A stretch of DNA of 61,722 bases from Chloroflexota bacterium (GTDB lineage: Bacteria > Chloroflexota > Dormibacteria > CF-121), in assembly GCA_005889535.1 (NCBI GenBank), contig VBHC01000123.1:1-61722 (forward strand). Reading direction: 5' to 3'. Under the pieces are notes generated by a model. That model saw only the letters and a list, made by a program, of their open reading frames with translations. It was not told the DNA's origin and did not search any database. Numbering within the stretch: position 1 is the first letter of the stretch; each line of letters opens with the position of its first letter. Below are positions 3,255-39,387 of the stretch, piece after piece. A program made the translations under genes and the position numbers.

Positions 3255-3602
3255 TTAGACGTCCAGCTCTTTGACGTCGAGCTCGCGCAGCTCCGCCGGA
3301 GCCTGCAGCCCGTTGTCCACCAGGATCCGGAGTAAACGCAACACGTAGCGGGCGCCGTTGAGATTGACGCCATGCTGGCGGGTCAGGGTCTGAATCGCCT
3401 GAAGTTTGCGGATGTCGCGCTGCGAAAAGCGACGGCGGTTGGTGGAGGTTCGCTTGGGGACGACGAGGCCCAGATGCTCGTACATCATCAGTGTTCGAGG
3501 ATGGGTCTGCAAAATCTCCGAGGCCACGCTGATGGTGTAGATCGGTTTGTCCAGCGAGAGGCTGGTGTCCGACGGTGCGCGGCGGGTTACTCCTTTAGCC
3601 AA
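3255..3602 (-). CDS. HspR-like MerR-family regulator (paralogue 1)
   Basis: YTISVASEIL..HPRTL..YE.LGL..P.RT..NRRRFS..D...GVNL.G; TTG start overlapping the upstream gene. Confidence 0.9.
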   Translation of the reverse strand: MAKGVTRRAPSDTSLSLDKPIYTISVASEILQTHPRTLMMYEHLGLVVPKRTSTNRRRFSQRDIRKLQAIQTLTRQHGVNLNGARYVLRLLRILVDNGLQAPAELRELDVKELDV

Positions 3603-4015
3603 TCCTCAATCCCCTCGGACAGACTGGTGGGCGTTGTGCGCGCCTTGATGAGGTACTCGTGGGCCCCCAGCCGCAACCCGCGCGCAACCAGATCCTCTTC
3701 ATCGTAATTAGAGAGGATGATAACCGGAATATCCCGCGTCTTCTCCTGCGCCCGCAATTTCCTCAACACTTCGAGCCCGTCCATTTTGGGGAGGCGGATG
3801 TCGAGGAAGATGATGTCGGGGGTCAGGTCGCCTGCTTTCTTCAGGCCGTCCTCGCCGTCGAGGGCGGTATTCACGCGATAACCATCGAGCTCCAACTTGA
3901 GGCGGTACATCTCCAGGACCGAGGGATCGTCTTCCACCAGGAGAACGTCGACCAGGTCCTCGTCGGTCTGGGTCGCCCGGCTCGCGCCGGCGCTGCGGCG
4001 CGTCTTACTTTCCAT
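3587..4015 (-). CDS. Single-domain response regulator (receiver only)
   Basis: LLVEDD, PDIIFLDIRLPKMDG, IILSN, YLIK. Confidence 0.9.
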   Translation of the reverse strand: MESKTRRSAGASRATQTDEDLVDVLLVEDDPSVLEMYRLKLELDGYRVNTALDGEDGLKKAGDLTPDIIFLDIRLPKMDGLEVLRKLRAQEKTRDIPVIILSNYDEEDLVARGLRLGAHEYLIKARTTPTSLSEGIEDWLKE

Positions 4016-4134
4016 AACACTCCCCTTGGCGCGAAGCAGTATAGACGAAGTCGGTGAATCTCGCCGCCCTTATGGAAAGGAATACGGTCCGATTACCCCG
4101 AGGCATACGACCGATCGCGTGGACATCCCCCAGA

Positions 4135-4162
4135 AAAGTTAAGGCCCTCCGAAGGGAGGGCC
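4135..4162 (-). terminator. Intrinsic terminator-like hairpin
   Basis: Minus strand GGCCCTCC-CTTC-GGAGGGCC followed by TTAACTTTT. Confidence 0.65.
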
Positions 4163-4191
4163 CGAAGAGGGGGGCAAGAGAACTAATGCGG

Positions 4192-4220
4192 ATTATAGGA
4201 AGGCCCGCGAGTCTTGTCAA
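4192..4220 (-). promoter_or_regulatory. Perfect sigma70/sigmaA consensus promoter
   Basis: Minus strand TTGACA (4220-4215), 17 nt spacer, TATAAT (4197-4192). Confidence 0.8.
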
Positions 4221-4338
4221 CAGGAGCACAGTCAGTAATTGTCCCGAGCCGACTGTCCCTAAACCCCGAACCCGGCGCATAACGATCCGCAAAAACGGTG
4301 AGCCAGGAAACCGGCAGCCCGCGGGATCCGCTCGGGCG

Positions 4339-4686
4339 CTAGACGTCGAGCTGCGACACGTCGATATCGCGAAGCTCGACCGGCGCGGAAAGCTGGTTCT
4401 CGTGCAGGAGCTTGAGCAGCTTCATGATGTAGCGCACGCCCGCGAGGTTGACCGAATGCTGCCGAGTCAGCTTCTGGATGGTCTGCAGCTTCATCACGTC
4501 GCGCTGCGAGAAGCGCCGGCGATTCGTCGATGTCCGCTTCGGCACGACCAGGCCGAGATGCTCGTACATCATCAGCGTCCTTGGATGAGTCTCCAGGATC
4601 TCCGACGCCACGCTGATGGTATAGATCGGCTTGTCGAGGGAGATGTTCGTGTCACGTCGGGTCTCACGCTTGACGGCGGTTACCAT
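4339..4686 (-). CDS. HspR-like MerR-family regulator (paralogue 2)
   Basis: Near-identical HTH to paralogue 1; GGAGG RBS. Confidence 0.9.
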   Translation of the reverse strand: MVTAVKRETRRDTNISLDKPIYTISVASEILETHPRTLMMYEHLGLVVPKRTSTNRRRFSQRDVMKLQTIQKLTRQHSVNLAGVRYIMKLLKLLHENQLSAPVELRDIDVSQLDV

Positions 4687-4848
4687 GCGGCCTCCAGTGC
4701 TTTTGTGCTTCCTGTATTGATAGCGTCCGCCGCGTGGACTCCGACGGCGAAATCGTGCTGAGTATAGGGGCGCAACGTGAGTAGGCTCAACGTAGGATTC
4801 GTAAATAGATGTGAACTCAGTTGAACGCCCACCCCCGGGCTAACGATA

Positions 4849-4877
4849 TGGACAGAACATCAGTGTGCTGCTATCAT
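4849..4877 (+). promoter_or_regulatory. Putative promoter of csbD-like gene
   Basis: TGGACA-17 nt-TATCAT with TGn extension. Confidence 0.5.
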
Positions 4878-4923
4878 ATTTGCTAACAGCGCCTTGTGGC
4901 GCTAAATCTACAGGAGGTGCCGC

Positions 4924-5112
4924 GTGGGCGAGTTTGGCGACAAGGCGGAAGGCGAAATGAAGGATGCCGGCGGGAAGCTGACCGGCGACAAGAAGATGGA
5001 ATGGGAAGGCAAGGCGCAGAAGGTGAAGGGCGATGTCGAAGGCGCGGGGCGTGAGATGACCGAAGGCGAGCCTGCGACGGACAAGCCGGTCGAGGGCGAG
5101 AAGGGCGTCTAG
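4924..5112 (+). CDS. CsbD-family stress protein
   Basis: DKAEG.MK...GKLTGD..ME.EGKAQK.KG; AGGAGG RBS. Confidence 0.85.
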   Translation: MGEFGDKAEGEMKDAGGKLTGDKKMEWEGKAQKVKGDVEGAGREMTEGEPATDKPVEGEKGV

Positions 5113-5127
5113 AGGCGAGGATCGCGC

Positions 5128-5154
5128 AAACCGGCCTTCGGGCCGGTTTTTTTA
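5128..5154 (+). terminator. Intrinsic terminator (possibly bidirectional)
   Basis: AAACCGGCC-TTCG-GGCCGGTTTTTTT. Confidence 0.85.
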
Positions 5155-5739
5155 TCGGGGAGTGGCCGGTGGGCGAGTACCGCCCGGTGGGGATGATTCC
5201 GCGGTCGCGGCTTCGGTGGAAACCTCGGGTCCCGCCCGCCGTCCCGCCTGGTAGCGGCCCGCGGGTCCCGCCTCGGGAGTGGATGGCCCGCCCCCACGCG
5301 GCCGAATATGGCTCAGGGTGGATTCCCGCAAGATCAAGAAGAGCAAGAGGGCAACCGACCCCAGGAGGAAATTCACGCTCAGCCACGCGCTTCCGATGGC
5401 AGGGGTAAAAAATCCGAGCACGAAACCGATCAGTGCCATGAAGAAGGCCGCGATGCTACCGATGTGCATGAACTCGTCCTGGAGGTGATGCCGCGGAAAC
5501 AGCTGCTGCAGACGGTCTTCCAGGGCGGACCGCGACCTGCCGCCCGATGGCAGGCCGGACGATCGAACCGGGCCGCTCGGCGGATCCGCTTGCGATTTCC
5601 CGCAGAACCGGCAAAACCGGGCACCCGCCTCAATGGGCTTGCCGCACTCCCGGCAAAAGATGGTTGCGCTCTTTTCGGCTGAGGCCGCGGCTGACAAAGC
5701 TGCCCCATTATAGGTTGGCGCTCTCCAGTTCGCGGCCAC
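5152..5739 (-). CDS. Zinc-ribbon membrane protein
   Basis: FCRECG...ARFCRFCG plus two TM segments; start uncertain. Confidence 0.7.
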   Translation of the reverse strand: MAANWRAPTYNGAALSAAASAEKSATIFCRECGKPIEAGARFCRFCGKSQADPPSGPVRSSGLPSGGRSRSALEDRLQQLFPRHHLQDEFMHIGSIAAFFMALIGFVLGFFTPAIGSAWLSVNFLLGSVALLLFLILRESTLSHIRPRGGGPSTPEAGPAGRYQAGRRAGPEVSTEAATAESSPPGGTRPPATPR

Positions 5740-5893
5740 CTCCCGGAGGGCGTAACCAAAGTCCCGGCGGGGCCGTTCGACAGAGGCAACCGGAACATTC
5801 TCGGACCCATCCCGTACAGAGGAGCTCCGCTTAGGTTACAATGGCTAAGTCAGATTTCCGTAGAGCAGTTACGGTACGTTTTAGGGGCCTGAA

Positions 5894-6088
5894 ATGATCA
5901 ACATCCGGCATGCGACCCACTCAGTCACCGCAGATGGCCTCTCGTCCCTCGCCGCTCGCCGACGGCAGATCCGGCGTCAGCGCCGGTCTACGGCGCGGGC
6001 GCTGGCGAGCGGACTGGGGTGGGGAGCGGTTATGCTCCTCTCTCTGTGGCTCCTGCTTTCGGGGATCTCCGGGTTTCTGAGCGCCTAG
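5894..6088 (+). CDS. Small basic membrane protein
   Basis: Arg-rich stretch and C-terminal TM; AGGGG RBS-like. Confidence 0.45.
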   Translation: MINIRHATHSVTADGLSSLAARRRQIRRQRRSTARALASGLGWGAVMLLSLWLLLSGISGFLSA

Positions 6089-8313
6089 CGGCTCGCCGGC
6101 GCACACAACGCCACGTAGACCGGTGGCGAAAGCGCAGCCGTGCCGACTTCCGTCGCACCGTGATCCTTGGTGTCGTGGTGGTGTTGCTCCTGCCCCTGAT
6201 GGGCATCCCCGCGATCACCGCCCAGGCCGTTGGACCCTTGCCCGCCGTCAGCGGCCTGTCGTCCAACAAGCTCCAGCAGGACACGCTGATCTACGACCGC
6301 CATGGGCAGCTGCTCGCCGACGTCGGCAAGGAGGGCAATCACCGGATCGTCGTGCCCCTCAACTACGTCTCGCCCTGGGTCGTGAAGGCGACCCTGGCCA
6401 CCGAGGACCGCACCTTCTACAGCAACAGCGGCATCGACGTCGGCGGCATTCTTCGGGCCGCGATCGCGAACTACCAGCACCATCACATTCAGCAGGGCGG
6501 GAGCACCATCAGCCAGCAGTTGATCAAGCAGGTCTACATCGGAAGCAACGCTCCAAACGACATCCAGCGCAAGATGAAGGAAGCGATCCTTGCCATCGAG
6601 CTGAACCGCGAATACAGCAAGAATCAGATCCTGGAGATGTATCTCAACACCATCTTCTACGGGAGCCAGACCTATGGGATCGAGGCGGCAGCACGCAGCT
6701 ACTTCCAGACCAACGCCCACGATGTGTCGCTGGCCCAGGCCGCCATGCTGGCCGGCCTCCCTCAGGCGCCGACGCGATACAACCCGGTCGTCAACTTCGC
6801 GTCCGCCAAACAGCGCCAGGCGCAGGTGCTGGCCGCCATGGTTGGCGAGAAGTTCATCACGGCGGCCGACGCCCAGGCTGCCTATGCCGTCAAGCTCCAG
6901 GTCTTCTCTCCCGTCACCAAGTTCGAGGCGCCCTACTTCGTCGACTACGTCTTGAAGACGCTCGCCAAGGACCACGGCATCAACTCCAGCGATCAGCGGG
7001 GCTATCGCGTCTACACCAGCCTCGACCTGAATCTCCAGCACATGGCGGAGAAAGTGGTGCGCGACCAGGTGGCGCAGAAGGGCGGTTTCTACAACTTCCA
7101 TGATGCGGCGCTGGTCAGCATGGACCCGAAAACCGGCCAGGTGCTCGCCATGGTCGGCGGCGTCGACTACAACCGACCCGGAGGCCAATTCAACTTCGCC
7201 TACGACGTCCCGCGCCCGCCCGGCTCGAGTTTCAAGATCTTCACCTACACGGCCGCCATCGAGAGCCGGAAAGTAAACATGCTGAGTCCGGTGCTCGACG
7301 CCCCGATGGTCTTCCCCACCGGTGGCGATGGTCCCGGCTACATGAGCGGATATGCGAAGTACATTCCGCAGAACTATGACCGCCGCTTTCACGGCACGCT
7401 GCCGCTCAAAATGGTGATGGGTAACTCGTTGAACATCCCCGCGCTGAAGGTTGAGCTGCGCACGGGCATCCCCGCGGTGGTCGACATGGCACACCGACTT
7501 GGCCTGACCTGTCTGGGCGAACCCTGCGACCGAAAACCCGCTGACTACGGCATGAGCCTGACGCTGGGCGCCTACCCCGTACGGCTGGCGGACATGGCGA
7601 CCGCGGCCTCAACGCTGGCGACGCTCGGCGTCCGCCACCGCGAAGCGCCAATCCTCAGCATCAAGGACGGACTGGGCCGCGCCGTCTACACATATGACCC
7701 GAAAACCGTGGAGTACCGGGCGGTCGACCCGGGCGTGGCCTTCATCATCGCGTCCATCATGTCCGACGACCGCAACCGTTGCCTTGAATTCGGCTGTGGC
7801 GGCGACCTTACCCTGGCTGGGCGCCACGTCGCCGCCAAGACCGGCACCACCAACGATTTCAAAGACAACTGGACGGTCGGTTTTACACCGAGCCTGGCGA
7901 CCGCCGTGTGGGTGGGAAACCCTGACAACAAGCCGCTCAGTCACAACTCGACCGGGATCGTCGGCGCCGCTCCCATCTGGCACAAGTTCATGACACAGGC
8001 ACTCGCCGGCAAACCGGATGAGTGGTACGGCGCAGTCCCGGCAGGCATCGACCAGATCGGGCAGAACTACTTCCTGACCGGCACCGAAAACCTGCCGAAG
8101 ACGCTGGCGCAGCCGTGGCCGCAATGCAAGCTCCCCGCGAACTACAGTCCCTACAGCCTGAGCTATTCGCAGATCACGGTGGATGGCGTCTACTGCGTCA
8201 TCAACGCGCCCAAGCCGCCGCCGGCGCCGACGCCTTCACCCGCGCCCAGCCCAACGCCTGACTGCCTGCCGGGTCTACCGCTTCCGCCCGGTCAGTGCAA
8301 GCCACATGACTAG
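6019..8313 (+). CDS. Class A penicillin-binding protein (transglycosylase-transpeptidase)
   Basis: EDRTFY, GGSTISQQL, RKMKE, SSFK, SLN, KTGTT; Pro-rich tail; true start probably further downstream. Confidence 0.95.
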   Translation: MGSGYAPLSVAPAFGDLRVSERLAARRRTQRHVDRWRKRSRADFRRTVILGVVVVLLLPLMGIPAITAQAVGPLPAVSGLSSNKLQQDTLIYDRHGQLLADVGKEGNHRIVVPLNYVSPWVVKATLATEDRTFYSNSGIDVGGILRAAIANYQHHHIQQGGSTISQQLIKQVYIGSNAPNDIQRKMKEAILAIELNREYSKNQILEMYLNTIFYGSQTYGIEAAARSYFQTNAHDVSLAQAAMLAGLPQAPTRYNPVVNFASAKQRQAQVLAAMVGEKFITAADAQAAYAVKLQVFSPVTKFEAPYFVDYVLKTLAKDHGINSSDQRGYRVYTSLDLNLQHMAEKVVRDQVAQKGGFYNFHDAALVSMDPKTGQVLAMVGGVDYNRPGGQFNFAYDVPRPPGSSFKIFTYTAAIESRKVNMLSPVLDAPMVFPTGGDGPGYMSGYAKYIPQNYDRRFHGTLPLKMVMGNSLNIPALKVELRTGIPAVVDMAHRLGLTCLGEPCDRKPADYGMSLTLGAYPVRLADMATAASTLATLGVRHREAPILSIKDGLGRAVYTYDPKTVEYRAVDPGVAFIIASIMSDDRNRCLEFGCGGDLTLAGRHVAAKTGTTNDFKDNWTVGFTPSLATAVWVGNPDNKPLSHNSTGIVGAAPIWHKFMTQALAGKPDEWYGAVPAGIDQIGQNYFLTGTENLPKTLAQPWPQCKLPANYSPYSLSYSQITVDGVYCVINAPKPPPAPTPSPAPSPTPDCLPGLPLPPGQCKPHD

Positions 8314-8340
8314 CGCCCCGACCGCTTCCCTGAGAGCGGC

Positions 8341-8715
8341 CTAGGCGATCCCCGGCTGGTCGGTGGAGGCTTTTTCGCCGCGGCCCTGCTCGCCGTCGCC
8401 GAAGGGCATCCGCTGGGCGAGCTCGCCGGCACGGTCACGGAGCTCGATGCCGCGCTGCATCAGGTCGTCTCGCATTTCCTCGCCGGTCTTGGGAGCGAGC
8501 AGTAAGGCGAGCCCGAAGCCGACAGCGACCCCGATCAACAGCCCGGTAACGAACCGCTCGACGCCGGCGTCTTCGTCCTGCGTGAGGCGGGTGCGCCGCA
8601 AGGCCGCCACCGCGTCCGTCAAACGGTCTTTCACCTCGAAATCCTGGGCCGCCTTGTTCGCGCGATCGAGCAGGTCGCTCAATCGGTCGATCGTCTTCTC
8701 CACGGTCTGATCCAT
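8341..8715 (-). CDS. YtxH domain protein
   Basis: G.LIG.AVG..LALLLAPKTGEEMR. Confidence 0.8.
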   Translation of the reverse strand: MDQTVEKTIDRLSDLLDRANKAAQDFEVKDRLTDAVAALRRTRLTQDEDAGVERFVTGLLIGVAVGFGLALLLAPKTGEEMRDDLMQRGIELRDRAGELAQRMPFGDGEQGRGEKASTDQPGIA

Positions 8716-8717
8716 CC

Positions 8718-8951
8718 TCATCCTCCTATGGGCGCCTGGCCCGGCTTTCTATTCCTGGAGCGCCCCGCCGAGGGAGGCGTAACCGGCGAAGCCGACCCGG
8801 CCCCGCCACTGTTGGCAGCCATCATGTCCTCCGCCTGACCCAGTAGGCGCGACACCCGCTGCCGGGTGCGCAGCCCGGACTCGGGCGCATAGAGCAACCC
8901 CAGGATGGCGCCCGCGATCGCGCCATGGGTCAGACCTCGCAAATATCCCAT
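8718..8951 (-). CDS. YtxH domain protein
   Basis: GAIAGAILGLLYAPESGLRTR. Confidence 0.75.
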   Translation of the reverse strand: MGYLRGLTHGAIAGAILGLLYAPESGLRTRQRVSRLLGQAEDMMAANSGGAGSASPVTPPSAGRSRNRKPGQAPIGG

Positions 8952-9163
8952 CTGGAAAACACGCTCCTCCCGCGCCAACCCCGCCCGGTACCGCCAAACG
9001 CTACGGCCATCGTACCACTTGCGTTTTTGCCGACCGACGCCGGTTTGGCGGCACGAAATTTCGGAATCTTGGGTGAACTTGGTTATACTTACCACCGGTG
9101 GAAAGGGGGGAAAGGTGACAGACGCGATGTTGACTTTCGCGATACGGCGTCCAAGGAGGGGAC

Positions 9164-9553
9164 ATGAGTGAAGTGGTCGATGAGGACGTTAACGTCCTCT
9201 TCATCGAAGATGACCCGGCCGTCGCCGAGATGTACAAGCTCAAGCTGGAGCTCGACGGCTACCGGGTTACCGTAGCCAAGTCCGGTGAGGAGGGCCTCGA
9301 CCACGCCAAGAACCAGGTGCCGGACATCGTGTTTCTCGACATCCGCCTTCCCAAGATGGATGGTTTTGCCGTCCTGGAGAATCTGCGCTCCGACAACGTG
9401 ACCAAGAACATCCCGGTCATCATCCTCTCCAACTACGGCGAAAAGGAGTTGGTCGACCGCGGTCTCAAGCTGGGCGCGCTCGACTACCTGATCAAGTCAG
9501 AGACCACGCCGGCAAGCCTCAGCCGTGGCGTACAGGATTGGGTCAAGGAATAG
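9164..9553 (+). CDS. Single-domain response regulator
   Basis: Close paralogue of 3587-4015; AAGGAGG RBS. Confidence 0.9.
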   Translation: MSEVVDEDVNVLFIEDDPAVAEMYKLKLELDGYRVTVAKSGEEGLDHAKNQVPDIVFLDIRLPKMDGFAVLENLRSDNVTKNIPVIILSNYGEKELVDRGLKLGALDYLIKSETTPASLSRGVQDWVKE

Positions 9554-9900
9554 CGTTGGTCCCGAATCGCGACCCGCGGATCGCCGGGGCGTTTGACCTC
9601 GACAAGCCCCTCTACACCATCAGTGTTGCGTCGGAGATCCTCGAAACCCACCCCCGTACCCTGATGATGTATGAGGACCTGGGGCTGATCGAGCCCTACC
9701 GGACGGCCACCAACCGGCGGCGCTACTCGCAACGCAACGTGCGCAAGTTGCAGGTCATCCAGCAACTGACCCGGGAGAAAGGGGTTAACCTCGCCGGCGT
9801 CAAGTACATTCTGATGCTGCTGGAATCACTCAAGCGCGGCGCGGTCAAACCGCCGGAAGACCTCAAGCAGGTCTACGACCTGTACGAAGAGATTATCTAG
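9538..9900 (+). CDS. HspR-like MerR-family regulator (paralogue 3)
   Basis: LDKPLYTISVASEILETHPRTL...GVNLAGVKYI; start TTG 9538 or 9556. Confidence 0.9.
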   Translation: MGQGIALVPNRDPRIAGAFDLDKPLYTISVASEILETHPRTLMMYEDLGLIEPYRTATNRRRYSQRNVRKLQVIQQLTREKGVNLAGVKYILMLLESLKRGAVKPPEDLKQVYDLYEEII

Positions 9901-11864
9901 CTTGCGGCGATCGGGGGGTCGGCGTCCCGGTCGCCGGCCGATCCGGCAGACGAGTCCTCCCAGTCATGGGCTTCGGCGGCGGCGATCCGCGCGGCCACCC
10001 CCGACTCCTGGACTTTCGGCAAGGTGACAGTGGCCGGCTCGATCGCCTCTTCTTCGAGCAGCAGGCGGTCGAGTTCGTCGCCGTCGATCGTTTCCACCAG
10101 CTGTAAGTGCTCGGCAATCCGCACCAGCGTGGCTCGGCGCGTGTGGCAGATGTCGTATGCCTGACGATAGGCCGCATCGGTCAGCGCCTTCACCTCCGCG
10201 TCGACATCAGCGGCCGTCAACTCGGAGAAGAACAGGCTGTCGCCCTCACCCCGGCGGTGCAATGTGACCAGACCAAGCCGCTCGCTCATGCCAAACTCGC
10301 AGACCATCTGGCGGGCGATGCTGGTGGCCTGTTCGATATCCTGCTTCGCGCCGGTTGTGACATCGCCAAAGATGATCTCCTCAGCGGCCCGGCCACCCAT
10401 CGCCGACGCCATGCGGCTCATCAGCTCAGACTTCGAGGTCAGGTACCGATCCTTCAACGGCAGCTGGATGGTGACACCCAGCGCCTGGCCGCGTGACACC
10501 ACCGAGACTTTGTGTACCGGGTCGCTCTTCGCAATCGATTTCATCACCAGGGCGTGGCCGACCTCGTGGTAGGCGATGATTGACTTCTCCTCCGGCGTGA
10601 TCATCCGGCTTCGCTTCTCGGGTCCGGCCATCACCCGAAGGCTCGCCTCGTCCAGCTCCTGCCTGCCAATCGCGACCTTCTTGTTCCGGGCGGCGAGGAT
10701 GGCCGCCTCGTTAAGAAGGTTCGCCAGGTCGGCACCGGTAAAGCCCGGCGTCTGCCTGGCGACCAGATCGAGGTCGATATTTTCGGCCAGCGGCTTGTGC
10801 GCCGCATAGAGACTCAGGATCGCGCGCCGGCCATTGAGGTCGGGCGCGTCGATCGCCACCCGCCGATCGAAACGGCCGGAGCGAAGCAGCGCGGGATCGA
10901 GGACGTCCGGACGGTTCGTAGCCGCGATCACGACCACGGCGCAGTCCGTGTTGAACCCGTCCATCTCCACGAGCAGCTGGTTGAGGGTTTGCTCACGCTC
11001 TTCATTAGTACGGATCTGCGCACCGCCACGCTTGCGCCCGAGGGCATCGATCTCGTCGAGAAAGACGAGGCAGGGGGCATTTTTCTTCGCGTGCCGGAAG
11101 AGATCGCGGACGCGCGCCGCGCCCACACCGACGAACATCTCGACGAAGTCGGACCCGCTCAACGAGAAATACGGGACCTTCGCCTCACCGGCGACCGCCC
11201 GAGAGAGCAGCGTCTTGCCGGTGCCGGGTGGACCGACCAGCAGGATGCCACGCGGCATGCGCGCACCAAGCTTGCCGAAGCTGCTCGGCGCTTTGAGGAA
11301 TTCGACAACCTCTTCCAGCTCGTGCTTGGCTTCGTCGACACCGACCACCTGGGAGAAGGTGACCTGGTCGGCGTCGCCAGTACGGGCCTCGGCGAGATGC
11401 TTTGTCATGGCGCCCATCGGATTGCCCAGCAGGTTGGACCGCCTGAGCAGGATGAACAGCAACGCCAGCAGGACAAGCAGTCCCAGCAGGTTCGGCAGCA
11501 CGGCCGCGAACGAGGTTTCGTCGGTCGACTGAACCGCGACTTTGACGTTGTGGCTCCGCAGGTACTGCTCGGTCGTGCCCATGGAGGATTCTTTTTCGAT
11601 CGTCCACGACTGATGACCGGCCGTGTCCGTCAATACGATGCGCTGACCAGTGATGCTGGCGCCCAGGATCTCGCCGCGGTCGACGCGGTCGAGCACATCG
11701 CTGATCGGAACGCTGGGCTGGTTCCAGACGGAGTTGGCGCCGGCATGTCCGAGAAACCACAGACCACCGGTAACGAGAAGGACCAGGGCCAGGAGCGCGG
11801 GCACGAGCATCCATCGACGACGCAGCCCCGACAAGGCGCGAAGACGGCGAACAAGCCATTTCAT
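9897..11864 (-). CDS. ftsH: ATP-dependent zinc metalloprotease FtsH
   Basis: Two [15 protein letters not shown] pore loop, DEID, SRH, HEVGH. Confidence 0.95.
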
Positions 11865-11884
11865 TGGTTCCTCAACCCCTCTCC

Positions 11885-13015
11885 TTAGTACGCAACCGGC
11901 TGGTCAGGTAGCGCGATCAGAGCCGTGCCGGCGATGCCGCCCGCGCGGTACCGCTGCCAGAACGGGTACGCGGTGATCGCCTGTTGCTCTTCCCCGGTCA
12001 CCCCGTTGTCCGCATTCGCCAGCCGGTAGTAAGACCAGCTGATCCCGCCCTGGGCGCGTGTCTCATCCATCGAGGTGACGATCTCATCCCCGGGTGGGGC
12101 ACCGGGCGTGCCATACTCGGGCGCGGCATCATAGGCTTGCGCCGTGATCGTCAGCGGGCGCTTGAACGGATTGACGCCCGGGTCGCGGAACTGTTGGAAC
12201 ACCTGGTCGACGTAGGCCCGAGCTCCGCCCGCACCGCTGTACTGCGGCAGGCCGGTGGCTCGCCAGTACACCATCGGGGCAAAGACCTGGCAATAGCGCG
12301 ACATGGTCGCGTAGGCGTAACCGGGGTGGTCATAGGGGGTTGGCAGGGTGCTCGCAATCAGCAGGTAGCGATCGCCGAGACCGTTCATGCCCTGGATCCC
12401 GCCGCGGATTCCCGACAGGTACTGGCCCACATTCGGGTCGGACGTGCTGTTCCCCTCGATCGTCAGCGCCAGGCCATCCAGGCGCTGGCCCTGCTCTTCG
12501 AACTGCGCCGCTGCCAGGGCATCGGCAGTGTCGGCGTTCGGGTCATCGAGCATGGGCTCGATCCAACCGATGATGCTGAGCCCATGCTGATGCGCGATGG
12601 GCAAGAGGTCCTGGAGGGCCGAAGCGCCGTAGAAGTGGTACCGCGAGTCGGCGATCCTTATATATAGGTGGCTGAGGTCAGCCCGGACGGCGGCATCGAC
12701 GATGGCCGCGGCCCGGTCGGCATCGGGATCGTTCCAATCACCGTTGAAGATCATCAGCCAGGCGCCTTTGCCCTTGACGCCGTCGAGCGGTGAGCGCGGC
12801 GCCTGGGCGAACGGCCGCGCCGTTACCGGCAGCTGGACGATCGCCGCGGTCGGGCGGCCGAAGCTGACGATCACGTGGCTGGCCTGTGCCTGCTCCTGGG
12901 CTCGAGCCTCCAGGTAGGCGCGCAGACCGAAAGGGGGCGTGAGGAGAGCGAATAGCGTCACTCCCAGCACAACCCTCCCTCCAAAGACCGTGACTTGCCG
13001 TAAGATGCGCGACAT
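11885..13015 (-). CDS. Membrane-anchored putative glycoside hydrolase-like (TIM-barrel) protein
   Basis: N-terminal TM; GKGAW, DGLALTIE, FAPMVYW, GISWSYY pattern. Confidence 0.5.
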   Translation of the reverse strand: MSRILRQVTVFGGRVVLGVTLFALLTPPFGLRAYLEARAQEQAQASHVIVSFGRPTAAIVQLPVTARPFAQAPRSPLDGVKGKGAWLMIFNGDWNDPDADRAAAIVDAAVRADLSHLYIRIADSRYHFYGASALQDLLPIAHQHGLSIIGWIEPMLDDPNADTADALAAAQFEEQGQRLDGLALTIEGNSTSDPNVGQYLSGIRGGIQGMNGLGDRYLLIASTLPTPYDHPGYAYATMSRYCQVFAPMVYWRATGLPQYSGAGGARAYVDQVFQQFRDPGVNPFKRPLTITAQAYDAAPEYGTPGAPPGDEIVTSMDETRAQGGISWSYYRLANADNGVTGEEQQAITAYPFWQRYRAGGIAGTALIALPDQPVAY

Positions 13016-13229
13016 GCTCCAAGGAACGGCTGCGACGCCGTTCGGGCGTGACACTAGCGGCAAGCTCGAGCGTGTTCAAGCGAGCGTCACGACGGCTAAG
13101 GTGATACGCCCCCGTACAGCCAATGGGTAGGCTTTTCCGGATCGTCACGCTGCGCACAGCGACGCCACAATTGACGCAAACGACGGCGGCCTTCGCTGTT
13201 TATCACAAATCCTGACATGTGGGCTATAA

Positions 13230-13565
13230 TTGTTTACAGCTTTCCATCCGGGAGGGCCGCAATTGGCAATGCCGCATAAGTCCAGCGAAGTCTCCGACAT
13301 GTTCGATATCGAGCCCCGTACGCTTTTCGTCTACGAAAGCGAGAATCTGATCGCCCCCGAGCGAACGCCGACACAGCGGCGGCGTTACTCGCGCCGCGAC
13401 ATCGAGCGGATCCGGCTCATTCGCGAATTGACCACGGTGCATGGCATCAACCTTGCCGGTGTCAAAGTCATTTTTTCTCTGATGGAGGCAGCGGTACAAA
13501 GCCGGCTGCAGATCCCAGAGAACGAATTTCCGGAGCTTGCCGGCGCCCGCCACCTCTGGGCCTGA
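13230..13565 (+). CDS. HspR-like MerR-family regulator (paralogue 4, diverged HTH)
   Basis: PRTLFVYE..NLIAPERT..QRRRYSRRDI...GINLAGVK; start possibly ATG 13269. Confidence 0.85.
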   Translation: MFTAFHPGGPQLAMPHKSSEVSDMFDIEPRTLFVYESENLIAPERTPTQRRRYSRRDIERIRLIRELTTVHGINLAGVKVIFSLMEAAVQSRLQIPENEFPELAGARHLWA

Positions 13566-13568
13566 GCC

Positions 13569-15131
13569 CTAGAGCGTTCCCTCGCGTCCGACCGGGAGTG
13601 TTTCCTCGCGGGCGGCTTCAGGATGCCGGGCGGCGAGGGGCTCCACCAGGTCCCGGATATCCTGCAGCTGCGCCGAGATCCAGCGGGCCACATCATTCTG
13701 CTGCACCACGGCCCGCATTTTCTCGGCGCGCCCGTGGCGTTCCACTGGGTCCATCAGCAGGGCGTGCTGCAGGGCCTGAGCAGTCGCGTCGACGTCAAAT
13801 GGATTGATCGTGATGGCCCACTCGCCAAGCTCCTCGTGGGTGCCGGCATTCTCGGAGAGCACCAGCGCACCGCCCCGGCGGTTCACCGTGATCCCCTCTT
13901 TCGCAACCAGGTTCATGCCGTCGTAGATCGGATTGACCAGGAGCACGTCGAACTGCTTGTAACCCGCCACCGCCCGGTTCATATCCTCACGAAGCTCGAG
14001 CCGAATAGGCTGCCAGTCATCGGACGCGAGGCGGCTATTGATCACCCTGGCCACCTGGAGGACCTGACGCGCGTATTCGCGGTATTCCGGCACGTTCTGG
14101 CGCGTCTTCTGCAGCATCGCCCAGAAGATGACCCGCCGCCGCCATTCCGGATGGGCTTGAAGCAGCCGCTCGTAGGCATAAAACCCGCGCACGATGTTCT
14201 TCGACAGGTCCATGCGGTCGACCCGATAGATCAGCTGCTCGGGACGCCAGCGTAGGATCTCCCGCTCGGCGCGCTCGACTCCCGGGCTGCCGGCGCTGCG
14301 CTCGAATTCCCGTACATCGATCGAGATGGGATAGCGACGCACCCATACCGTCCGGCCGCGATAGAAGGCGGTCTGTTGGCGGAAGTCGACGGGCAGCCCC
14401 ATGTTCTCTTCGCACGTCAGCAAGAAATTGCGAACGTCCGAATGCGTCTGTAGACCGATGATGTCGGCCGCCAGCAGGCCGTCCATGATCTCGTCCCGCA
14501 TGTATTGCGGCAGCACCTTCCAGTACTGCGGGGTGGGCCAGGGGATGTGAACGAAATGCTGTATCACCGCATCCGCCAGCTCGCGGCGCACCAACCGCGG
14601 CACGAGGTACAGGTGGTAATCATGCGACAGCACAAGCGGCCGCTTGCGACCGCGCCGCGCTTCGCGCACCACTTGCTGGGCGAACAGCTGGTTGACACGG
14701 CGGTAGCCTTCGTTCCAGGCCCGGTGCGTGCTGTCATCGAGAACGGGCGCTTCCGCCAGGTTCCAGAGGTAATGCTGGACGAACCAGAGCAGCGGGTTCG
14801 CAATCGCGTTGTAGTACAGGTCGTAGGCGAGGCGCGGTGGATTGACCCAGCTGACCTGGAAGCGGGCACCGTCCGCGGTCTCGACCACCATCGGCTCTCC
14901 GCCGCTCCCCAGGTCGAGCTCGCCTTCGAATCCATCCCGCGCCGAGGCCACCCACACCGCCCCGGTGGCCTGGGCAAGGCCCGAGAGCCCCGTCACGAGC
15001 CCGCCAGATCCCCGAACAAAGCGTTCTCGGTCGCCGGCGTCGGGCGCGAGGTCAACCGGCGGGCGGTTGGCTGCCACGATCGGATGAAAATCCTTGAGAA
15101 GGCGGCGGGTGTACTGCTCGATCGCCAGCAT
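13569..15131 (-). CDS. otsA: Trehalose-6-phosphate synthase / GT20 glycosyltransferase
   Basis: ANRPP, GGLVT, HDYHL, HFVHIPWP, VDRMDLSKN, DGMNLVAKE, LSENAG. Confidence 0.9.
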   Translation of the reverse strand: MLAIEQYTRRLLKDFHPIVAANRPPVDLAPDAGDRERFVRGSGGLVTGLSGLAQATGAVWVASARDGFEGELDLGSGGEPMVVETADGARFQVSWVNPPRLAYDLYYNAIANPLLWFVQHYLWNLAEAPVLDDSTHRAWNEGYRRVNQLFAQQVVREARRGRKRPLVLSHDYHLYLVPRLVRRELADAVIQHFVHIPWPTPQYWKVLPQYMRDEIMDGLLAADIIGLQTHSDVRNFLLTCEENMGLPVDFRQQTAFYRGRTVWVRRYPISIDVREFERSAGSPGVERAEREILRWRPEQLIYRVDRMDLSKNIVRGFYAYERLLQAHPEWRRRVIFWAMLQKTRQNVPEYREYARQVLQVARVINSRLASDDWQPIRLELREDMNRAVAGYKQFDVLLVNPIYDGMNLVAKEGITVNRRGGALVLSENAGTHEELGEWAITINPFDVDATAQALQHALLMDPVERHGRAEKMRAVVQQNDVARWISAQLQDIRDLVEPLAARHPEAAREETLPVGREGTL

Positions 15132-15196
15132 CGCTTGGTCTAACTCTACGCGGCATGCTCGAATGGCCCGGCTTCGGAAGCCGGGGCTTGCGCCGA

Positions 15197-15225
15197 TTGG
15201 CAATAAGTGATATCGTGGGTATAAA
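15197..15225 (+). promoter_or_regulatory. Putative sigmaA promoter of MerR paralogue 5
   Basis: TTGGCA-17 nt-TATAAA. Confidence 0.55.
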
Positions 15226-15269
15226 GTTACGGCTAAGCGGGGCCGGGGAATGCTCCGCGCTGGGGTGAC

Positions 15270-15617
15270 ATGGGAAAACGAAAGCGAATGCCGGCGATTG
15301 CCCCGGGTCGGGCTGTCTTCACGCCCAGCATCGCTAGCGAGATCCTCAACCTCCACCCGCGCACGTTGATGATTTACGAGAGCGAGAACCTGATCAAGCC
15401 GCAGCGCACGGCCACGAACCGTCGGCGGTACTCGGAAGACGATATCCGGCGAGTTCGCGTGATTCAGTTCCTCACCCGCCAGAAGGGTGTGAACCTCGCG
15501 GGGGTGAAGTACGTCCTGCATCTGCTGCAATCCCTGGGGAACCAGGGCCTCGACCTCAACCAGGTCCGCGAGCTCGACACGCTACAGGAGGTCTCCGGGA
15601 ACGGCCTCTCGGCTTGA
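15270..15617 (+). CDS. HspR-like MerR-family regulator (paralogue 5)
   Basis: FTPSIASEILNLHPRTL..YE...NRRRYS...GVNLAGVKY. Confidence 0.9.
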   Translation: MGKRKRMPAIAPGRAVFTPSIASEILNLHPRTLMIYESENLIKPQRTATNRRRYSEDDIRRVRVIQFLTRQKGVNLAGVKYVLHLLQSLGNQGLDLNQVRELDTLQEVSGNGLSA

Positions 15618-15734
15618 GTTCTAGCACTCTCCGTGAAAGTGCTTGACAGGGCTTGTGGACTATGTAACAGTGCATGTATCATCTTTCGTGGATCATGAAC
15701 TCGGTACATTCGCGTTAGTGAAGGGAGCAGGTAG

Positions 15735-16046
15735 ATGCTGAGCGACGCGATCGAGGAGATTCATCGTGAGTTTCAGGCGGCGGCCGACCGGCGGGACCAA
15801 GAGCTTCGCCGACGGGCGGACGTGCGACGGGTCGACGACTTCCTTCTCGCGATCGAAGACATCATCGAGAACCAGCGCGGGGCCGTCCCGGCCCCGCTGA
15901 TGGACGAGATCACCCGGTTTGTCCGGCCGCTGAGCCGTAAGCTGCTGCGGGCGCTCAACCGCAACGTGACCCGTGATCCGGTACGCGTGCTGGACGTCCT
16001 CTTCGACGTGCAGCAACTGCTCCTGCCGCGGTTGATGGTGGCATAG
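15735..16046 (+). CDS. Helical hypothetical protein
   Basis: GGGAG RBS; resembles 38665-39000. Confidence 0.7.
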   Translation: MLSDAIEEIHREFQAAADRRDQELRRRADVRRVDDFLLAIEDIIENQRGAVPAPLMDEITRFVRPLSRKLLRALNRNVTRDPVRVLDVLFDVQQLLLPRLMVA

Positions 16047-16187
16047 TCCGGAGCGAGGGGGGATCCTCCGGCTAGAAAACCGATAGGCGGCGCGCTCAAT
16101 AAGCCGGATAGCCGTTGCAGTTGAATCCGGACTGTGCGTCAAATAGCCTGTGCGGCCGGTCGAATTGATCCTATTGAGGTTGCCCTG

Positions 16188-17780
16188 ATGCCACAAGTAG
16201 CGGCCCGCAGCGGCGGGCTGGGCGCGAGGTTCCGTCGTCGCTGGTGGGTCCTCCCCATCGTTTTGCTGCTGGTTGCCGCCGGGCTGGTGCTGCGCGCCTT
16301 GACCACCCCGCTGGCCGTCAGCGCCAGTGTGGCCGACGGCGATCATGCCGTGGTCCGCGGTTCGGCGGTCATCCTGACCTTCAGTCAGGACATGGACGTG
16401 GCATCGGTCAAGCATGGCTTCCGGATCACGCCGTCCGTTCCTTACACGGTGCTGGTCAAGGACCCGCACACCTTCGAATTCCATGCTCAGCTCCAGGCCG
16501 ACACCGGCTATCGAATCCAGGTCGCTGGCGCCCGCAAAGCCATCGGCTTCGGGAGCCAGAACTACGGCGTCGCGTTTCACACGGAGCCGGCACCGAAGGT
16601 GACCGGAGCCAGCTTCAACGATGCCGCGCTGGCCGATGGCCAGCAGGCGGTCGCCCTGCATGGCACCCTCAAGGTCACCTTCTCGCAGCCCATGGATCCG
16701 GCCCGGACGCCGTTCTTGCTCGACGGCGCTCCGCTGGAGCCCAAGACGATCACCTGGGACAAGAGCAGCCTGACGGCGAGCGCCCTTCTTTCGCTCACTC
16801 ACAGCCGGACCCACACCCTGCTGGTGCCAAAGAGCGCGGCCAATCGCAAGCGAGATTCGGCGCTGGCCGATTGGAAGCTCAGTTTTACCACCATGGTGCA
16901 GGTGCCGTCGGCGGGCTCGACAGCCCGGATCGGCAGCTCGGGCGCACCGATCATCGTCCAGATCGAAAACAGCACGCAGACCACGGTTCGGCCCCAGACC
17001 GGCATGCAGCAGGCGGACATGATTTACGAGTACATCAGCGAGTTCGGGATACCGCGGCTTTCCGCGATCTACTGGCACCCACCGTCGAGTCTCATCGGTC
17101 CGGTCCGGAGCTGCCGCTTGATCACGGTCCAGCTGGAGCAGATGTACCGGGGCATGATCTATTGCTCCGGCGCCAACAACTACGTGCTCGGGCAAGTTTG
17201 GAAATGGCCGAACGTCGTCTACGACTACGCGTACATGTACGCCTATATGTACCGGGCTTCTGACCGCTACGCCCCGCACAACGTGATCGCCCGGCCTGAC
17301 CAAATTACGGCGCACACGGCGGGAGCCAACTTGCCCGCCCTGAGTTATGACATCGCTGCAGCGCACCCTGACGTGCCGCTGCCTGGCGCAATCCCGGCAA
17401 CCTCTGTGACCATCAAGCAGCACAGTGCCGTGTGGCGCTACGATGCCAACCGTCACGAGTACTTGAAGTGGCAGGATGGAGTACCCTTCACCAACGTTGG
17501 GACCGGGCAGGTGCACGCCAAAAATTTGATCATCGAGCGTGTGCCCTCGTATATCGATCGGAACCCTGCTAACACCGGGGTCCACGGCACCTACAACACG
17601 GAGTACTACGAACTGGCGGGTGAAGGCACGGCCGACATCTACTCGGATGGCGGGATGATCCATGCGACGTGGAAGCATCCCAACCGAGACCTACCGGTGG
17701 TTTACTACGATGCCAGCGGCAACCCGATCGACCTCAACACCGGGTTGACCTGGGTTCACGTCATAGGGAGTGATCAATGA
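16188..17780 (+). CDS. Membrane-anchored Ig-like (Big_5) + DUF3048 (YerB-like) protein
   Basis: TM; FSQDMD/FSQPMD Ig motifs; QIEN..RPQTG...AD..YE..E.GI.R, GPVRS.R, APHN, G.TWVH. Confidence 0.8.
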   Translation: MPQVAARSGGLGARFRRRWWVLPIVLLLVAAGLVLRALTTPLAVSASVADGDHAVVRGSAVILTFSQDMDVASVKHGFRITPSVPYTVLVKDPHTFEFHAQLQADTGYRIQVAGARKAIGFGSQNYGVAFHTEPAPKVTGASFNDAALADGQQAVALHGTLKVTFSQPMDPARTPFLLDGAPLEPKTITWDKSSLTASALLSLTHSRTHTLLVPKSAANRKRDSALADWKLSFTTMVQVPSAGSTARIGSSGAPIIVQIENSTQTTVRPQTGMQQADMIYEYISEFGIPRLSAIYWHPPSSLIGPVRSCRLITVQLEQMYRGMIYCSGANNYVLGQVWKWPNVVYDYAYMYAYMYRASDRYAPHNVIARPDQITAHTAGANLPALSYDIAAAHPDVPLPGAIPATSVTIKQHSAVWRYDANRHEYLKWQDGVPFTNVGTGQVHAKNLIIERVPSYIDRNPANTGVHGTYNTEYYELAGEGTADIYSDGGMIHATWKHPNRDLPVVYYDASGNPIDLNTGLTWVHVIGSDQ

Positions 17781-19342
17781 CCTGGATGCAAACACTACGT
17801 CAACGCTGGTGGCTGGCACCGATCGCCATCCTCCTGGTCGCGGCGGCCATCGTGATTCGCATCATCACCACGCCGCTCGAGGTCAACGCCAACGTCAACG
17901 ACGGTGACCAGGCGGTCCCCCGGACGGCCACGATCGACCTTCGCTTCAACCAGGACATGAAATCGGACTCGGTGCAGCATGCCTTCAGCATCAGCCCTGG
18001 CGTGCTGGTCGGCTTCAAGGCCGTAAGCGCCCGCGAGTTCCAATTCCGGCCGAAGATGGCGCCGAACACCTCCTACCACGTCAGCATCAAGGACGCCAAG
18101 AACACGTCGGGCCGGGGCGTCAGCAGTGGCTTTCGTTTCAAGACCGAGCCCGCGCCGGGCATTGCGAATGTCAAGGTCAACAACGAGAGCGTGAGCGACG
18201 GCCAGCAGGGGCTGAAGCCGACCGGTGCCATCCAGATCGGCTTCTCACAGCCGATGGACGGTGCCAAGACGCCGATCGCCGTGAACGGCAAGGCGTTCGA
18301 CAGCAAGAAGGTCAGTTGGTCCCACGACGGCAAGGCGGCGACGCTGGATTTGAAGCTCGGGCACAGCCACCCCTATCAGTTGTCGATTCCGCAGACGGCG
18401 GTCAATCGCAAGCAGGACCCGCTGGCAGCGGACTGGAAGTTCTCCTTCACGACAGTGATCGAGGTGCCGTCGCAGGGCGACCCGGCCAGGATCGGGGCAG
18501 GAGCCCCGACCATCATCCAGATCGAGAACAGCAGCGATGCGCGTCCACAGGCCGGCATGCAGCAAGCCGACATGGTCTACGAGTACATCAGCGAGGGCTC
18601 GATCCCGCGGCTCAGTGTGATCTACTGGCACCCGCTGCCCGACCTGGTTGGTCCGGTGCGGAGCTGCCGCCTGATCACCATCAGATTGGAGTTGATGTAC
18701 AAGGGGATGATTTATTGCTCCGGGGCGAACGATTATGTCCTGGGGATGGTCTGGAAATACCCCAACCTGGTCAATGACTACAGCCGCGGCGCGGGAAACG
18801 TGTTTTATCGCGCCTCAGACCGGTATGCCCCGCACAACGTCATGATGCACGGCAACAACGTCACCGCCTTCACCGCCAGCAAGAACGTCGCGGCACCCAC
18901 CTATGACATCGCGCCCAAACATCCTGACGGAACCTTCACTGGTGACGCCGCTCCCCAAATCTCGGTCCCCGACCACGGAGCGACCTGGCAGTACGATCCC
19001 AATTCGAAGCAGTACTTCAAATCGCAGGACGGGCGGGCCTTCAACAACGTGGGCACCGGTCGGGTCCACGCCAAAACCGTGATCGTCGAATATGTCAACT
19101 CCTTCCTCGACACCAACCCGGCAAACAGTTTCCACGGCTATTTCACGGAGGCCTATGAGTTGACCGGCGACGGCCGGGCCGACATCTTCGTCGACGGCAT
19201 GGTGGTCCACGCCACCTGGCACCATCCGGATCCAAATGTCCCGGCGGTCTACCTGGACGCGAACGGAAACCCGATCGAGCTGGACAACGGGTTGACCTGG
19301 GTCCATGTGATCGGCTCCCAGAAGTGGCACGGCGGCATCTAA
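17777..19342 (+). CDS. Second Ig-like + DUF3048 protein (tandem paralogue)
   Basis: Same motifs; ATGA overlap with upstream gene. Confidence 0.8.
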   Translation: MTWMQTLRQRWWLAPIAILLVAAAIVIRIITTPLEVNANVNDGDQAVPRTATIDLRFNQDMKSDSVQHAFSISPGVLVGFKAVSAREFQFRPKMAPNTSYHVSIKDAKNTSGRGVSSGFRFKTEPAPGIANVKVNNESVSDGQQGLKPTGAIQIGFSQPMDGAKTPIAVNGKAFDSKKVSWSHDGKAATLDLKLGHSHPYQLSIPQTAVNRKQDPLAADWKFSFTTVIEVPSQGDPARIGAGAPTIIQIENSSDARPQAGMQQADMVYEYISEGSIPRLSVIYWHPLPDLVGPVRSCRLITIRLELMYKGMIYCSGANDYVLGMVWKYPNLVNDYSRGAGNVFYRASDRYAPHNVMMHGNNVTAFTASKNVAAPTYDIAPKHPDGTFTGDAAPQISVPDHGATWQYDPNSKQYFKSQDGRAFNNVGTGRVHAKTVIVEYVNSFLDTNPANSFHGYFTEAYELTGDGRADIFVDGMVVHATWHHPDPNVPAVYLDANGNPIELDNGLTWVHVIGSQKWHGGI

Positions 19343-24501: not shown

Positions 24502-24579
24502 GGCCCGTTCGTCTAGCTGGTCCAGGACGCTGCCCTCTCAAGGCAGAAATCAGCGGTTCGAATCCGCTACGGGCTACCA
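24502..24579 (+). tRNA. tRNA-Glu(CTC)
   Basis: Cloverleaf GGCCCGT...ACGGGCT-ACCA; anticodon arm CTGCC-CTCTCAA-GGCAG; GGTTCGAATCC. Confidence 0.95.
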
Positions 24580-39000: not shown

Positions 39001-39129
39001 CGGCGAGCGTCCCAGTAAACTGATCGCAGCGCCGCCCGAGATTCGGGTGGCGTTTTCTTTTCCCGGCACGCATCCTATAATTGCGGTCACCTTTTGGGGG
39101 AGGTGATGCCGGCCAAGCGCCACGACAAG

Positions 39130-39298: not shown

Positions 39299-39387
39299 AC
39301 CAACGACCCTCTTCGAGGCTGAGAGGGAGGTGCCAGGCATCTTCTCCGATCGGCCTCCAGTTGCTCATCAACGCTCTGGAGGACACC

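Follow-up and report, generated by a model that had tools for sequence, protein, structure and literature searches.

HspR is a heat-shock repressor of the MerR type for which DnaK serves as co-repressor (Streptomyces literature). Single-domain receivers commonly have varied targets, and those of the CheY, Spo0F and DivK types act by protein contact. TnrA and GlnR are described as lacking the MerR coiled coil and as dimerising weakly on a box of 17 bp (TGTNA-N7-TNACA), with C-terminal tails that work as autoinhibitory or partner-binding sensors (PMC4335299). BldC of Streptomyces (68 amino acids [aa]) is presented as a small MerR-like protein with neither a coiled coil nor an effector domain (PMC5859096). 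Here, a locus of Dormibacteria was compared with these systems. The locus (3255–15617) is part of a stretch of 61,722 nucleotides (nt), contig VBHC01000123.1, which was analysed as a whole and is called the window below. The source genome is a Candidatus Dormibacterota metagenome-assembled genome (MAG) from soil (2.77 Mb, 221 contigs, 81% complete).

The locus carries five genes for small MerR-type regulators (M1–M5) and two genes for stand-alone receivers (REC1 and REC3), placed among stress genes. M1–M5 form an offshoot, of Dormibacteria type, from the HspR branch of the MerR family; their architecture is GlnR/TnrA-like, and they are outside HspR as curated. On balance, it is probable that the locus is a Dormibacteria stress-protection island run by lineage-specific small MerR-type regulators that are receiver-fed and partner-controlled. 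What is most unusual about the cluster is its coupling of regulators to receivers.

The five MerR-type genes

The first-pass annotation, made from the sequence of the window, had described five genes with a common motif in about 12 kb. All five open reading frames (ORFs) were found, carried the motif and belonged to MerR_1:

3255–3602, minus strand: M1, small HspR-related MerR-type regulator (115 aa, TTG start; MerR_1 E 2.3e-16)
4339–4686, minus strand: M2, MerR-type regulator of 115 aa; its gene diverges from the csbD-like gene and has a conserved block upstream
9556–9900 (ORF from 9538), plus strand: M3, MerR-type regulator (114 aa)
13269–13565 (ORF from 13230), plus strand: M4, 98 aa, the paralogue that diverges most
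15270–15617, plus strand: M5, MerR-type regulator (115 aa), divergent from otsA, with conserved promoter blocks

The matches to Pfam PF13411 MerR_1 had E values from 7e-17 to 2e-15 (57–62 bits, cut-off 21.6 bits). The start of M3 is likely TTG 9556, the codon used by database orthologues, and M4 likely starts at ATG 13269, behind the Shine-Dalgarno sequence GGGAGGG. Identity to M1 was 71% for M2, 56% for M3, 48% for M5 and 37% for M4, and 24 columns were invariant in the alignment of the five proteins. The same alignment bore out the variation noted earlier in the first helix of the helix-turn-helix (HTH). Recognition helices and wings were nearly identical in M1, M2, M3 and probably M5; these proteins may therefore have sites or partners in common. 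The back-translated pattern N-R-R-R-F/Y was found six times in the window (0.28 expected; six or more in 0/100 shuffles). Four of these matches lay inside the paralogues, with M4, which has Q-R-R-R, being missed, and the other two (22943 and 61407) were outside MerR genes.

In the printed sequences, the C-terminal tails were of two types, and their patterns recurred across Dormibacteria families. Tails of type one ended in ...(D/E)(I/L)DV..(L/I).(V/L/M), and those of type two in ...PP.DL..(V/A)(Y/F)..Y.EI(I/L).

Relationship to HspR

The HspR model NF047375 (equivalog) was the top NCBIfam model for all five proteins (M1, 88.1; M2, 91.8; M3, 92.3; M4, 69.6; M5, 82.8 bits), and every one of them scored below the curated cut-off of 105 bits. 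No HspR match above 105 bits was found in 41 Dormibacteria genomes, 21 of which passed the quality filter (at least 90% complete). In the phylum sample, matches over the cut-off were present in 40 of the 151 genomes. The paralogues have the signature H-P-x-T-L...Y-E...R-T...R-R-Y-S...G-V-N-L-A-G in common with HspR. A profile of M3 orthologues matched canonical Chloroflexota HspR at 99.8% probability and 45% identity over residues 18–101 only, the identity spanning the winged HTH and helices 3–4.

Two trees were made from short alignments (107–116 columns), for which reason the deeper forks were without resolution. The FastTree set (205 rows) combined the window and the genus loci with other Dormibacteria families, canonical Chloroflexota HspR and 142 representatives of 50% clusters. 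The five paralogues fell in a clade of 69 rows without any canonical-type sequence (support 89). In the IQ-TREE analysis (quick search, 125 rows), a branch with SH-aLRT 100 separated the 29 rows of canonical HspR from the rest, and the common ancestor of the five spanned 60 rows, none of them canonical (SH-aLRT 93). M1 and M2 grouped with M2-like genes of other families, and M3 with M3-like genes. M4, on a long branch, and M5 were related only to genus loci and unnamed representatives.

Linkage to chaperone genes was examined in 30 canonical HspR loci (about ±1.5 kb; tblastn with own ClpB and DnaK). ClpB was found in 19/30 and DnaK in 1/30, and an ORF with a J-domain-like motif, called by the motif alone, in 17/30. 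In the MAG studied here, dnaK and clpB lie together on another contig (C63), and groEL and hrcA are also outside the cluster. Pfam and NCBIfam scans of the window ORFs detected no ClpB or DnaK; no search was aimed at grpE or dnaJ. The earlier statement that dnaK, grpE and dnaJ are absent from the window was thus upheld for dnaK. The description of the genes as uncoupled from chaperone genes was correct in that no linkage to dnaK or clpB was seen, but the units do adjoin stress genes (csbD-like, ytxH, ftsH and otsA).

The MAG was also scanned for the consensus sequences of the HAIR element and of a CIRCE-like repeat. No HAIR site with 0–1 mismatch was found, although the operator may be diverged. 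There were 42 sites with 2–3 mismatches, none directly upstream of dnaK, clpB, groEL or hrcA; one site with three mismatches was located about 700 nt upstream of clpB, in a hairpin-rich stretch. The CIRCE-like repeat (9-N9-9) was perfect upstream of groEL (C51, about 17990–18020) and degenerate upstream of hrcA (C118, about 30740–30770). The dnaK/clpB region was without a CIRCE-like or HAIR-like element by these consensus sequences, and no 6-bp inverted repeat was present upstream of dnaK or clpB.

Unlike HspR, which occurs in one to three copies, the regulators are five in number. Two of them are paired with receivers, they are not adjacent to chaperone genes, and dnaK and clpB have no HAIR-like site. 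Automatic names such as 'heat shock protein HspR' (JGI) overstate what is known, because the proteins fall short of the curated HspR model and lack chaperone linkage. A literature search found no paper joining Dormibacterota with HspR.

Architecture

In the AlphaFold2 model of M3 (pLDDT 88), two C-terminal helices, 85–100 (16 residues) and 107–117 (11 residues), are separated by a Gly/Pro break. The model of a canonical Chloroflexota HspR (pLDDT 91) has a single C-terminal helix of 40 residues (68–107). On these models, the long C-terminal HspR helix, which is the coiled-coil dimerisation region, is absent from the family, being replaced in M3 by the two short predicted helices. The HspR profile alignment ends at residue 101 because the C-terminal helices differ in the two models. 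The label HspR-like, used in the first-pass annotation, therefore suits the DNA-binding domain (45% identity) and not the architecture, where the long helix is lacking and the fold is GlnR/TnrA-like.

With the M3 model as the Foldseek query, GlnR-DNA structures were the top matches (7tea and 4r4e; rmsd 1.0–1.1 Å, TM by target 0.84–0.93). The GlnR/TnrA-DNA set as a whole (7tea, 4r4e and 4r22) gave an rmsd of 1.0–1.8 Å, and classical coiled-coil MerR proteins more than 5 Å. GlnR was also the best sequence match in PDB (E 5e-11); none of the solved chains matched bore the name HspR. Like GlnR and TnrA of Bacillus and relatives, the proteins have about 100–135 aa and no long coiled coil, with a short C-terminal helix or tail after helix 4. 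Unlike them, they have no nitrogen-metabolism context, their tails are unrelated in sequence, and their partner would be a receiver and not glutamine synthetase. The TnrA model NF053740 gave 24–27 bits for all five (cut-off 140 bits). BldC is likewise a small MerR-like protein, but it is much shorter, and its model (NF033787) matched M4 only (24.4 bits, cut-off 77 bits). In Foldseek, BldC was at rank 42 with 48 columns covered.

Receiver genes

Two of the MerR genes had been reported as coupled to stand-alone receiver genes, and this was confirmed for M1 and M3:

3587–4015, minus strand: REC1, single-domain receiver (Response_reg E 5.9e-26), overlapping the start of M1 by 16 nt
9164–9553, plus strand: REC3, single-domain receiver (Response_reg E 5.3e-26), its stop lying 2 nt before TTG 9556 of M3

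Both receivers scored 91 bits to Pfam PF00072 Response_reg, and they are 65% identical to each other. E15 D16 D17, D59, S89 and K111 were invariant in 38 relatives of REC3, and, with residue roles read from the alignment, the phospho-acceptor set appears complete. REC1 and REC3 resemble receivers of the CheY, Spo0F and DivK types in size (129–142 aa), in consisting of a receiver only and in the complete acceptor pocket; relatives are called 'CheY-like' by JGI. They differ from these types in their conserved position immediately before a MerR-type gene, the two reading frames overlapping or abutting. M1 and M3 directly follow a receiver gene, and M4 and M5 are without one.

Among the Dormibacteria loci scanned, which are kin and not independent, a receiver gene was directly upstream at 113 of the 219 MerR genes. 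Translational coupling is suggested by the frames of receiver and regulator, which overlap or are almost contiguous. Tight and conserved coupling usually marks proteins that act jointly. A literature search, with supplements outside its scope, turned up no described receiver-HspR or receiver-MerR pairing. Docking of REC3 with M3 gave scores of 0.27 and 0.04 (mark 0.32), a result that counts neither for nor against binding.

Longer relatives of the family were also inspected. One has three BON domains and MerR (P0171), another a Lon N-terminal substrate-binding domain and MerR (P0221), and two are tandem MerR-MerR proteins (P0130 and P0142). The BON and Lon-N fusions are a further link of this branch with osmotic and proteotoxic stress. 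In a Pfam scan, a REC domain was absent from all 10 long representatives. Two candidates were discarded: a REC+MerR protein was a frameshifted read-through of REC1-M1, and a second long protein was a PBP-MerR gene-call fusion.

A further receiver was noticed elsewhere in the window. The protein encoded at 21730–23763 (minus strand; 677 aa) has a membrane-like N-terminal segment and a very long low-complexity region rich in Pro, Ala, Gly and Glu. Its receiver is only at the C-terminus (residues 552–653), which is an odd architecture for a response regulator.

Copy number and gene order in relatives

Searching the MAG with the HspR model gave matches at M1–M5 only, and these five make up 5/9 of its MerR_1 matches. 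All of the 24 same-genus genomes had 3–8 HspR-model matches (E <= 1e-10), often on one contig and spaced as in the window, and 16 genomes from other families of the class had 0–5 at the same threshold. In the sample of 151 Chloroflexota genomes, 117 had a match at E <= 1e-15; at this threshold the family of the window (f1), the only one with five or more copies, had 5–6 matches, and the other Chloroflexota genomes listed had 0–3. The counts include two unpublished genomes, G019 among the 24 of the genus and G075 in the phylum sample.

Gene order was identical in the 9/9 same-genus loci fetched: GH18-C39-unk162-M1-REC1-M2-(csbD)-ZnR-PBP1A-ytxH-REC3-M3-ftsH-unk392-M4-otsA-M5-DUF3048. M1 orthologues were 93–99% identical in 9/9 genus loci, and at locus L006 the protein was 100% identical to M1. 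In the other Dormibacteria families (11 loci), the core was smaller, with one or two MerR genes, and was adjoined by a receiver gene in 8/11, by otsA in 7/11 and by PBP1A in 5/11. Two layouts of this core were seen: an M2-like gene divergent from a receiver and an M3-like gene, and M2-like, receiver and M2-like genes on one strand. The genus of the window holds both layouts plus M4 and M5.

The expansion in this genus and family, which had been proposed as a lineage-specific expanded regulator family, is thus supported: the only HspR-model matches in the MAG are the five, 3–8 were found in 24/24 genus genomes, and all five fall in one clade without canonical HspR. The first-pass annotation had named a cluster not conserved in relatives as evidence against its proposal. 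The synteny comparison gave the opposite, with the order kept in all nine loci.

Stress genes beside the regulators

The following genes were located next to the regulators:

4924–5112, plus strand: gene for a csbD-like small stress protein (62 aa; GTG start, preceded by GGAGG)
8341–8721, minus strand: ytxHa (Pfam YtxH, 54.6 bits)
8718–8951 (ORF to 9095), minus strand: ytxHb (Pfam YtxH, 36.3 bits)
9897–11864, minus strand: ftsH, heat-shock protease (Peptidase_M41 E 9e-61, AAA E 7e-45)
11885–13063, minus strand: unk392, gene for a 392-aa protein without Pfam or NCBIfam match
13569–15131, minus strand: otsA, trehalose-6-phosphate synthase (520 aa from ATG 15131; Glyco_transf_20 E 1e-112)

In Bacillus, csbD and ytxH are members of the general stress regulon. 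The csbD-like gene was found by tblastn in 7/9 other genus loci. The start of ytxHb would lie at ATG 8951, orthologue alignments beginning near residue 45. OtsA scored 324 bits to TIGR02400, below the cut-off of that model (565 bits), and its gene is flanked by M4 and M5, as had been stated earlier. Four units are arranged head-to-head: M2 with the csbD-like gene, REC3-M3 with the two ytxH genes, M4 with unk392-ftsH and M5 with otsA. The genes unk392 and ftsH, in this order, probably form an operon divergent from M4. REC1-M1 is on the same strand as M2 and downstream of it.

Intergenic regions

Six intergenic regions were aligned across 10 genus sequences, and each contained blocks conserved in 10/10. 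Two elements were recorded in these regions:

13201–13217, strand not assigned: candidate operator dyad TATCA-N7-TGACA (17 bp), directly upstream of the M4 -10 box TATAAT (13225–13230)
4131–4220, minus strand, between M2 and REC1: promoter TTGACA-N17-TATAAT, a predicted C-rich transcript of ~55 nt (4131–4186; CCCCCCUCUUC) and a terminator-like hairpin

The dyad of the M4 promoter has the geometry of the GlnR/TnrA box. As TATCA-N7-TGAYA, it was present in 10/10 genus sequences and was a perfect palindrome in five. A relaxed form of the box, TRTNA-N7-TNAYA, was in the same place of the M4 promoter in 10/10 genus sequences; it was also present at the csbD -10 region in 6/10 and absent from the other four intergenic regions. 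Few 9-mers were common to different intergenic regions, and these were unconvincing; counts of 8-mers mirrored orthology only. A GTGA(A/T/C) core that recurred on visual inspection was dropped, having no statistical support.

The unit at 4131–4220 has an 8-bp GC hairpin followed by a U-tract, and it was near-invariant in 10/10 genus sequences with variable flanks. An exact 20-mer of the unit was present in 41/132 loci. The z-score of its fold was only -1.37, and Rfam at gathering thresholds gave nothing inside 3255–15617. Judged by its sequence, the unit may be a small RNA (sRNA), or else a leader or attenuator of REC1-M1. By hand pairing, its C-rich stretch pairs 9/10 with the invariant GAAAGGGGGG in the 5' region of REC3 (about 9100–9110).

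The 5' untranslated region (5'UTR) of the csbD-like gene contains a hairpin, AGCGCC-TTGT-GGCGCT (4888–4903, plus strand), between the -10 box (4872–4877) and the Shine-Dalgarno sequence. By alignment only, the stem was preserved in further genomes of the genus, where both of its sides carry changes (e.g. GCGCG...CGCGT). Upstream of otsA, a conserved CCGCGTAGAGTTAG block (15132–15165) ends about 10 nt before the ATG, and this distance suggests a leaderless or near-leaderless mRNA. The 10-mer GTAGAGTTAG also precedes a trkA-like gene divergent from dnaK (C63, about 6560–6590).

Other features of the window

The ORF at 15693–17678 (minus strand, 661 aa) was treated as spurious, because it had no family match and its translation was Arg-rich and non-protein-like. 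The true gene in this region is probably on the plus strand (16134–17780), and a DUF3048-like match overlaps the region in relatives. Further features were a full-length DUF6909 protein (36753–38507, minus strand; Pfam 707 bits), a cobalamin riboswitch (39125–39307, plus strand; Rfam RF00174, 114 bits, E 7e-28) and tRNA genes at 24502–24576 and 59393–59464.

Proposed mechanism and alternative explanations

The reading of the locus as a receiver-fed stress-protection island, which is held with modest confidence, would proceed as follows. Across the class, the ancestral unit would have been one or two MerR genes by otsA, one of which is usually preceded directly by the gene of a single-domain receiver. 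It would have expanded in this genus to five regulators and two receivers, interleaved with the csbD-like gene, two ytxH genes, ftsH and otsA. Each regulator would bind the promoter region that its gene shares with the stress gene opposite, and would control both genes. The two orphan receivers would import a signal, probably one of desiccation, heat or osmotic stress, from a distant histidine kinase, and would probably act on the co-translated MerR partner through protein contact. We infer this contact by analogy with glutamine synthetase acting on GlnR and TnrA, and with DnaK acting on HspR. A dormancy or developmental programme had been suggested earlier; stress or dormancy would fit the neighbours, and nothing points to a developmental programme.

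Several observations weigh against this reading. No operator common to the cluster promoters was identified, so the proposed regulation of the neighbours is deduced from gene arrangement alone. When 149 non-redundant Dormibacteria upstream regions were searched for exact 5-mer inverted and direct repeats, no AT-rich dyad was among the 25 listed; GC-rich repeats headed the list, among them the terminator hairpin of the sRNA-like unit (17 regions). The one clean dyad was confined to the M4 promoter, and the sequence TATCA-N7-TGATA was not enriched in the MAG, with one exact and eight one-mismatch occurrences against 0 and 5–10 in each of three simulated genomes. No histidine kinase was detected among the window ORFs scanned with family libraries, and a search for longer proteins gave no natural REC-MerR fusion (two returned; a blank of this kind is weak evidence). 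Two of the stress genes scored under the Pfam cut-offs, the csbD-like gene with 34.6 bits to CsbD (cut-off 40 bits) and ytxHb just below the YtxH cut-off of 37.5 bits. As the MAG is 81% complete, a canonical hspR of this genome may have escaped. Contigs from soil RNA libraries (three runs of one study, with small shares) covered M1, REC1, M2, REC3 and M3 and bridged both REC-MerR junctions, which weakly supports expression, but they were mostly from 90–95% relatives, with DNA carry-over possible, and a single transcript cannot be demonstrated from them. Their cover of the stretch was partial, and gaps such as most of 6832–7739 and 8875–9101 carry no information.

The five genes could alternatively be independent local regulators that arose by tandem duplication, with the receivers acting elsewhere, e.g. 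as phosphate sinks, and with neither REC-MerR contact nor a common programme. This would agree with the lack of a common operator and of REC-MerR fusions, with M4 and M5 being divergent and without a receiver, and with the varied targets that single-domain receivers are generally known to have. However, a MerR gene is immediately preceded by a receiver gene in 8/11 loci of other families, and this holds for 113/219 MerR genes; with the frames overlapping or nearly abutting, this speaks for joint action. The neighbours also share one kind of function, stress protection. Independent regulators are thus considered unlikely.

The paralogues could also be functional equivalents of HspR, relocated and multiplied, which repress dnaK, clpB and other chaperone genes in trans and whose neighbours are coincidental. 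HspR is their best NCBIfam model, and the 45% identity lies in the DNA-binding domain. The role could have been taken over in a class where no canonical HspR exceeded the cut-off in 41 genomes, and dnaK/clpB, having no CIRCE-like element while groEL and hrcA have one, would need another regulator. Against this stand the scores below the curated cut-off, the missing long C-terminal helix and the conservation of otsA and receiver linkage across the class. The lack of HAIR sites with 0–1 mismatch in the MAG and of a 6-bp inverted repeat upstream of dnaK/clpB only weakens the explanation, since the operator could differ from HAIR. Taken with the other points, HspR equivalents seem distinctly unlikely. 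It is highly improbable that the family belongs to another characterised group of short MerR proteins, be it the nitrogen regulators GlnR and TnrA or the developmental regulators of the BldC type, which bind as multimers to direct repeats. Among solved structures, those of GlnR and TnrA come nearest, and they also give the best sequence matches in PDB; the M4 promoter dyad has their 5-N7-5 box geometry, and M4 weakly matches the BldC model. The model scores nevertheless fall far short (TnrA 24–27 against 140 bits; BldC 24 against 77 bits, for M4 only), HspR models score far higher, and BldC reached only rank 42 with 48 columns in Foldseek. No glutamine synthetase family was among the cluster-area ORFs scanned, although no search was aimed at glnA.

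Within the stress-island reading, a more specific version is offered tentatively, as a possibility that may well turn out wrong. It takes the conserved pair as a 'split response regulator' of a hitherto undescribed kind, in which a phosphorylatable single-domain receiver would act via the conserved C-terminal tail of an HspR/GlnR-type MerR protein without a coiled coil. The paralogues, with their nearly identical recognition helices, would mix as heterodimers on the island promoters, and the circuit would time trehalose, CsbD/YtxH-type protectants and FtsH, i.e. entry into and exit from the dormancy that gave the lineage its name.

Significance

Dormibacteria are abundant in soils and uncultured, and they are believed to survive long spells of drought or starvation. 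Within about 12 kb, the island offers a candidate circuit that is concrete, compact and conserved, with five regulators and two receivers, whose probable outputs are trehalose synthase, CsbD/YtxH-type proteins and FtsH. By placing an HspR-like DNA-binding domain in a GlnR/TnrA architecture, the family links two groups of partner-controlled regulators, and it suggests the receiver as a third kind of partner.

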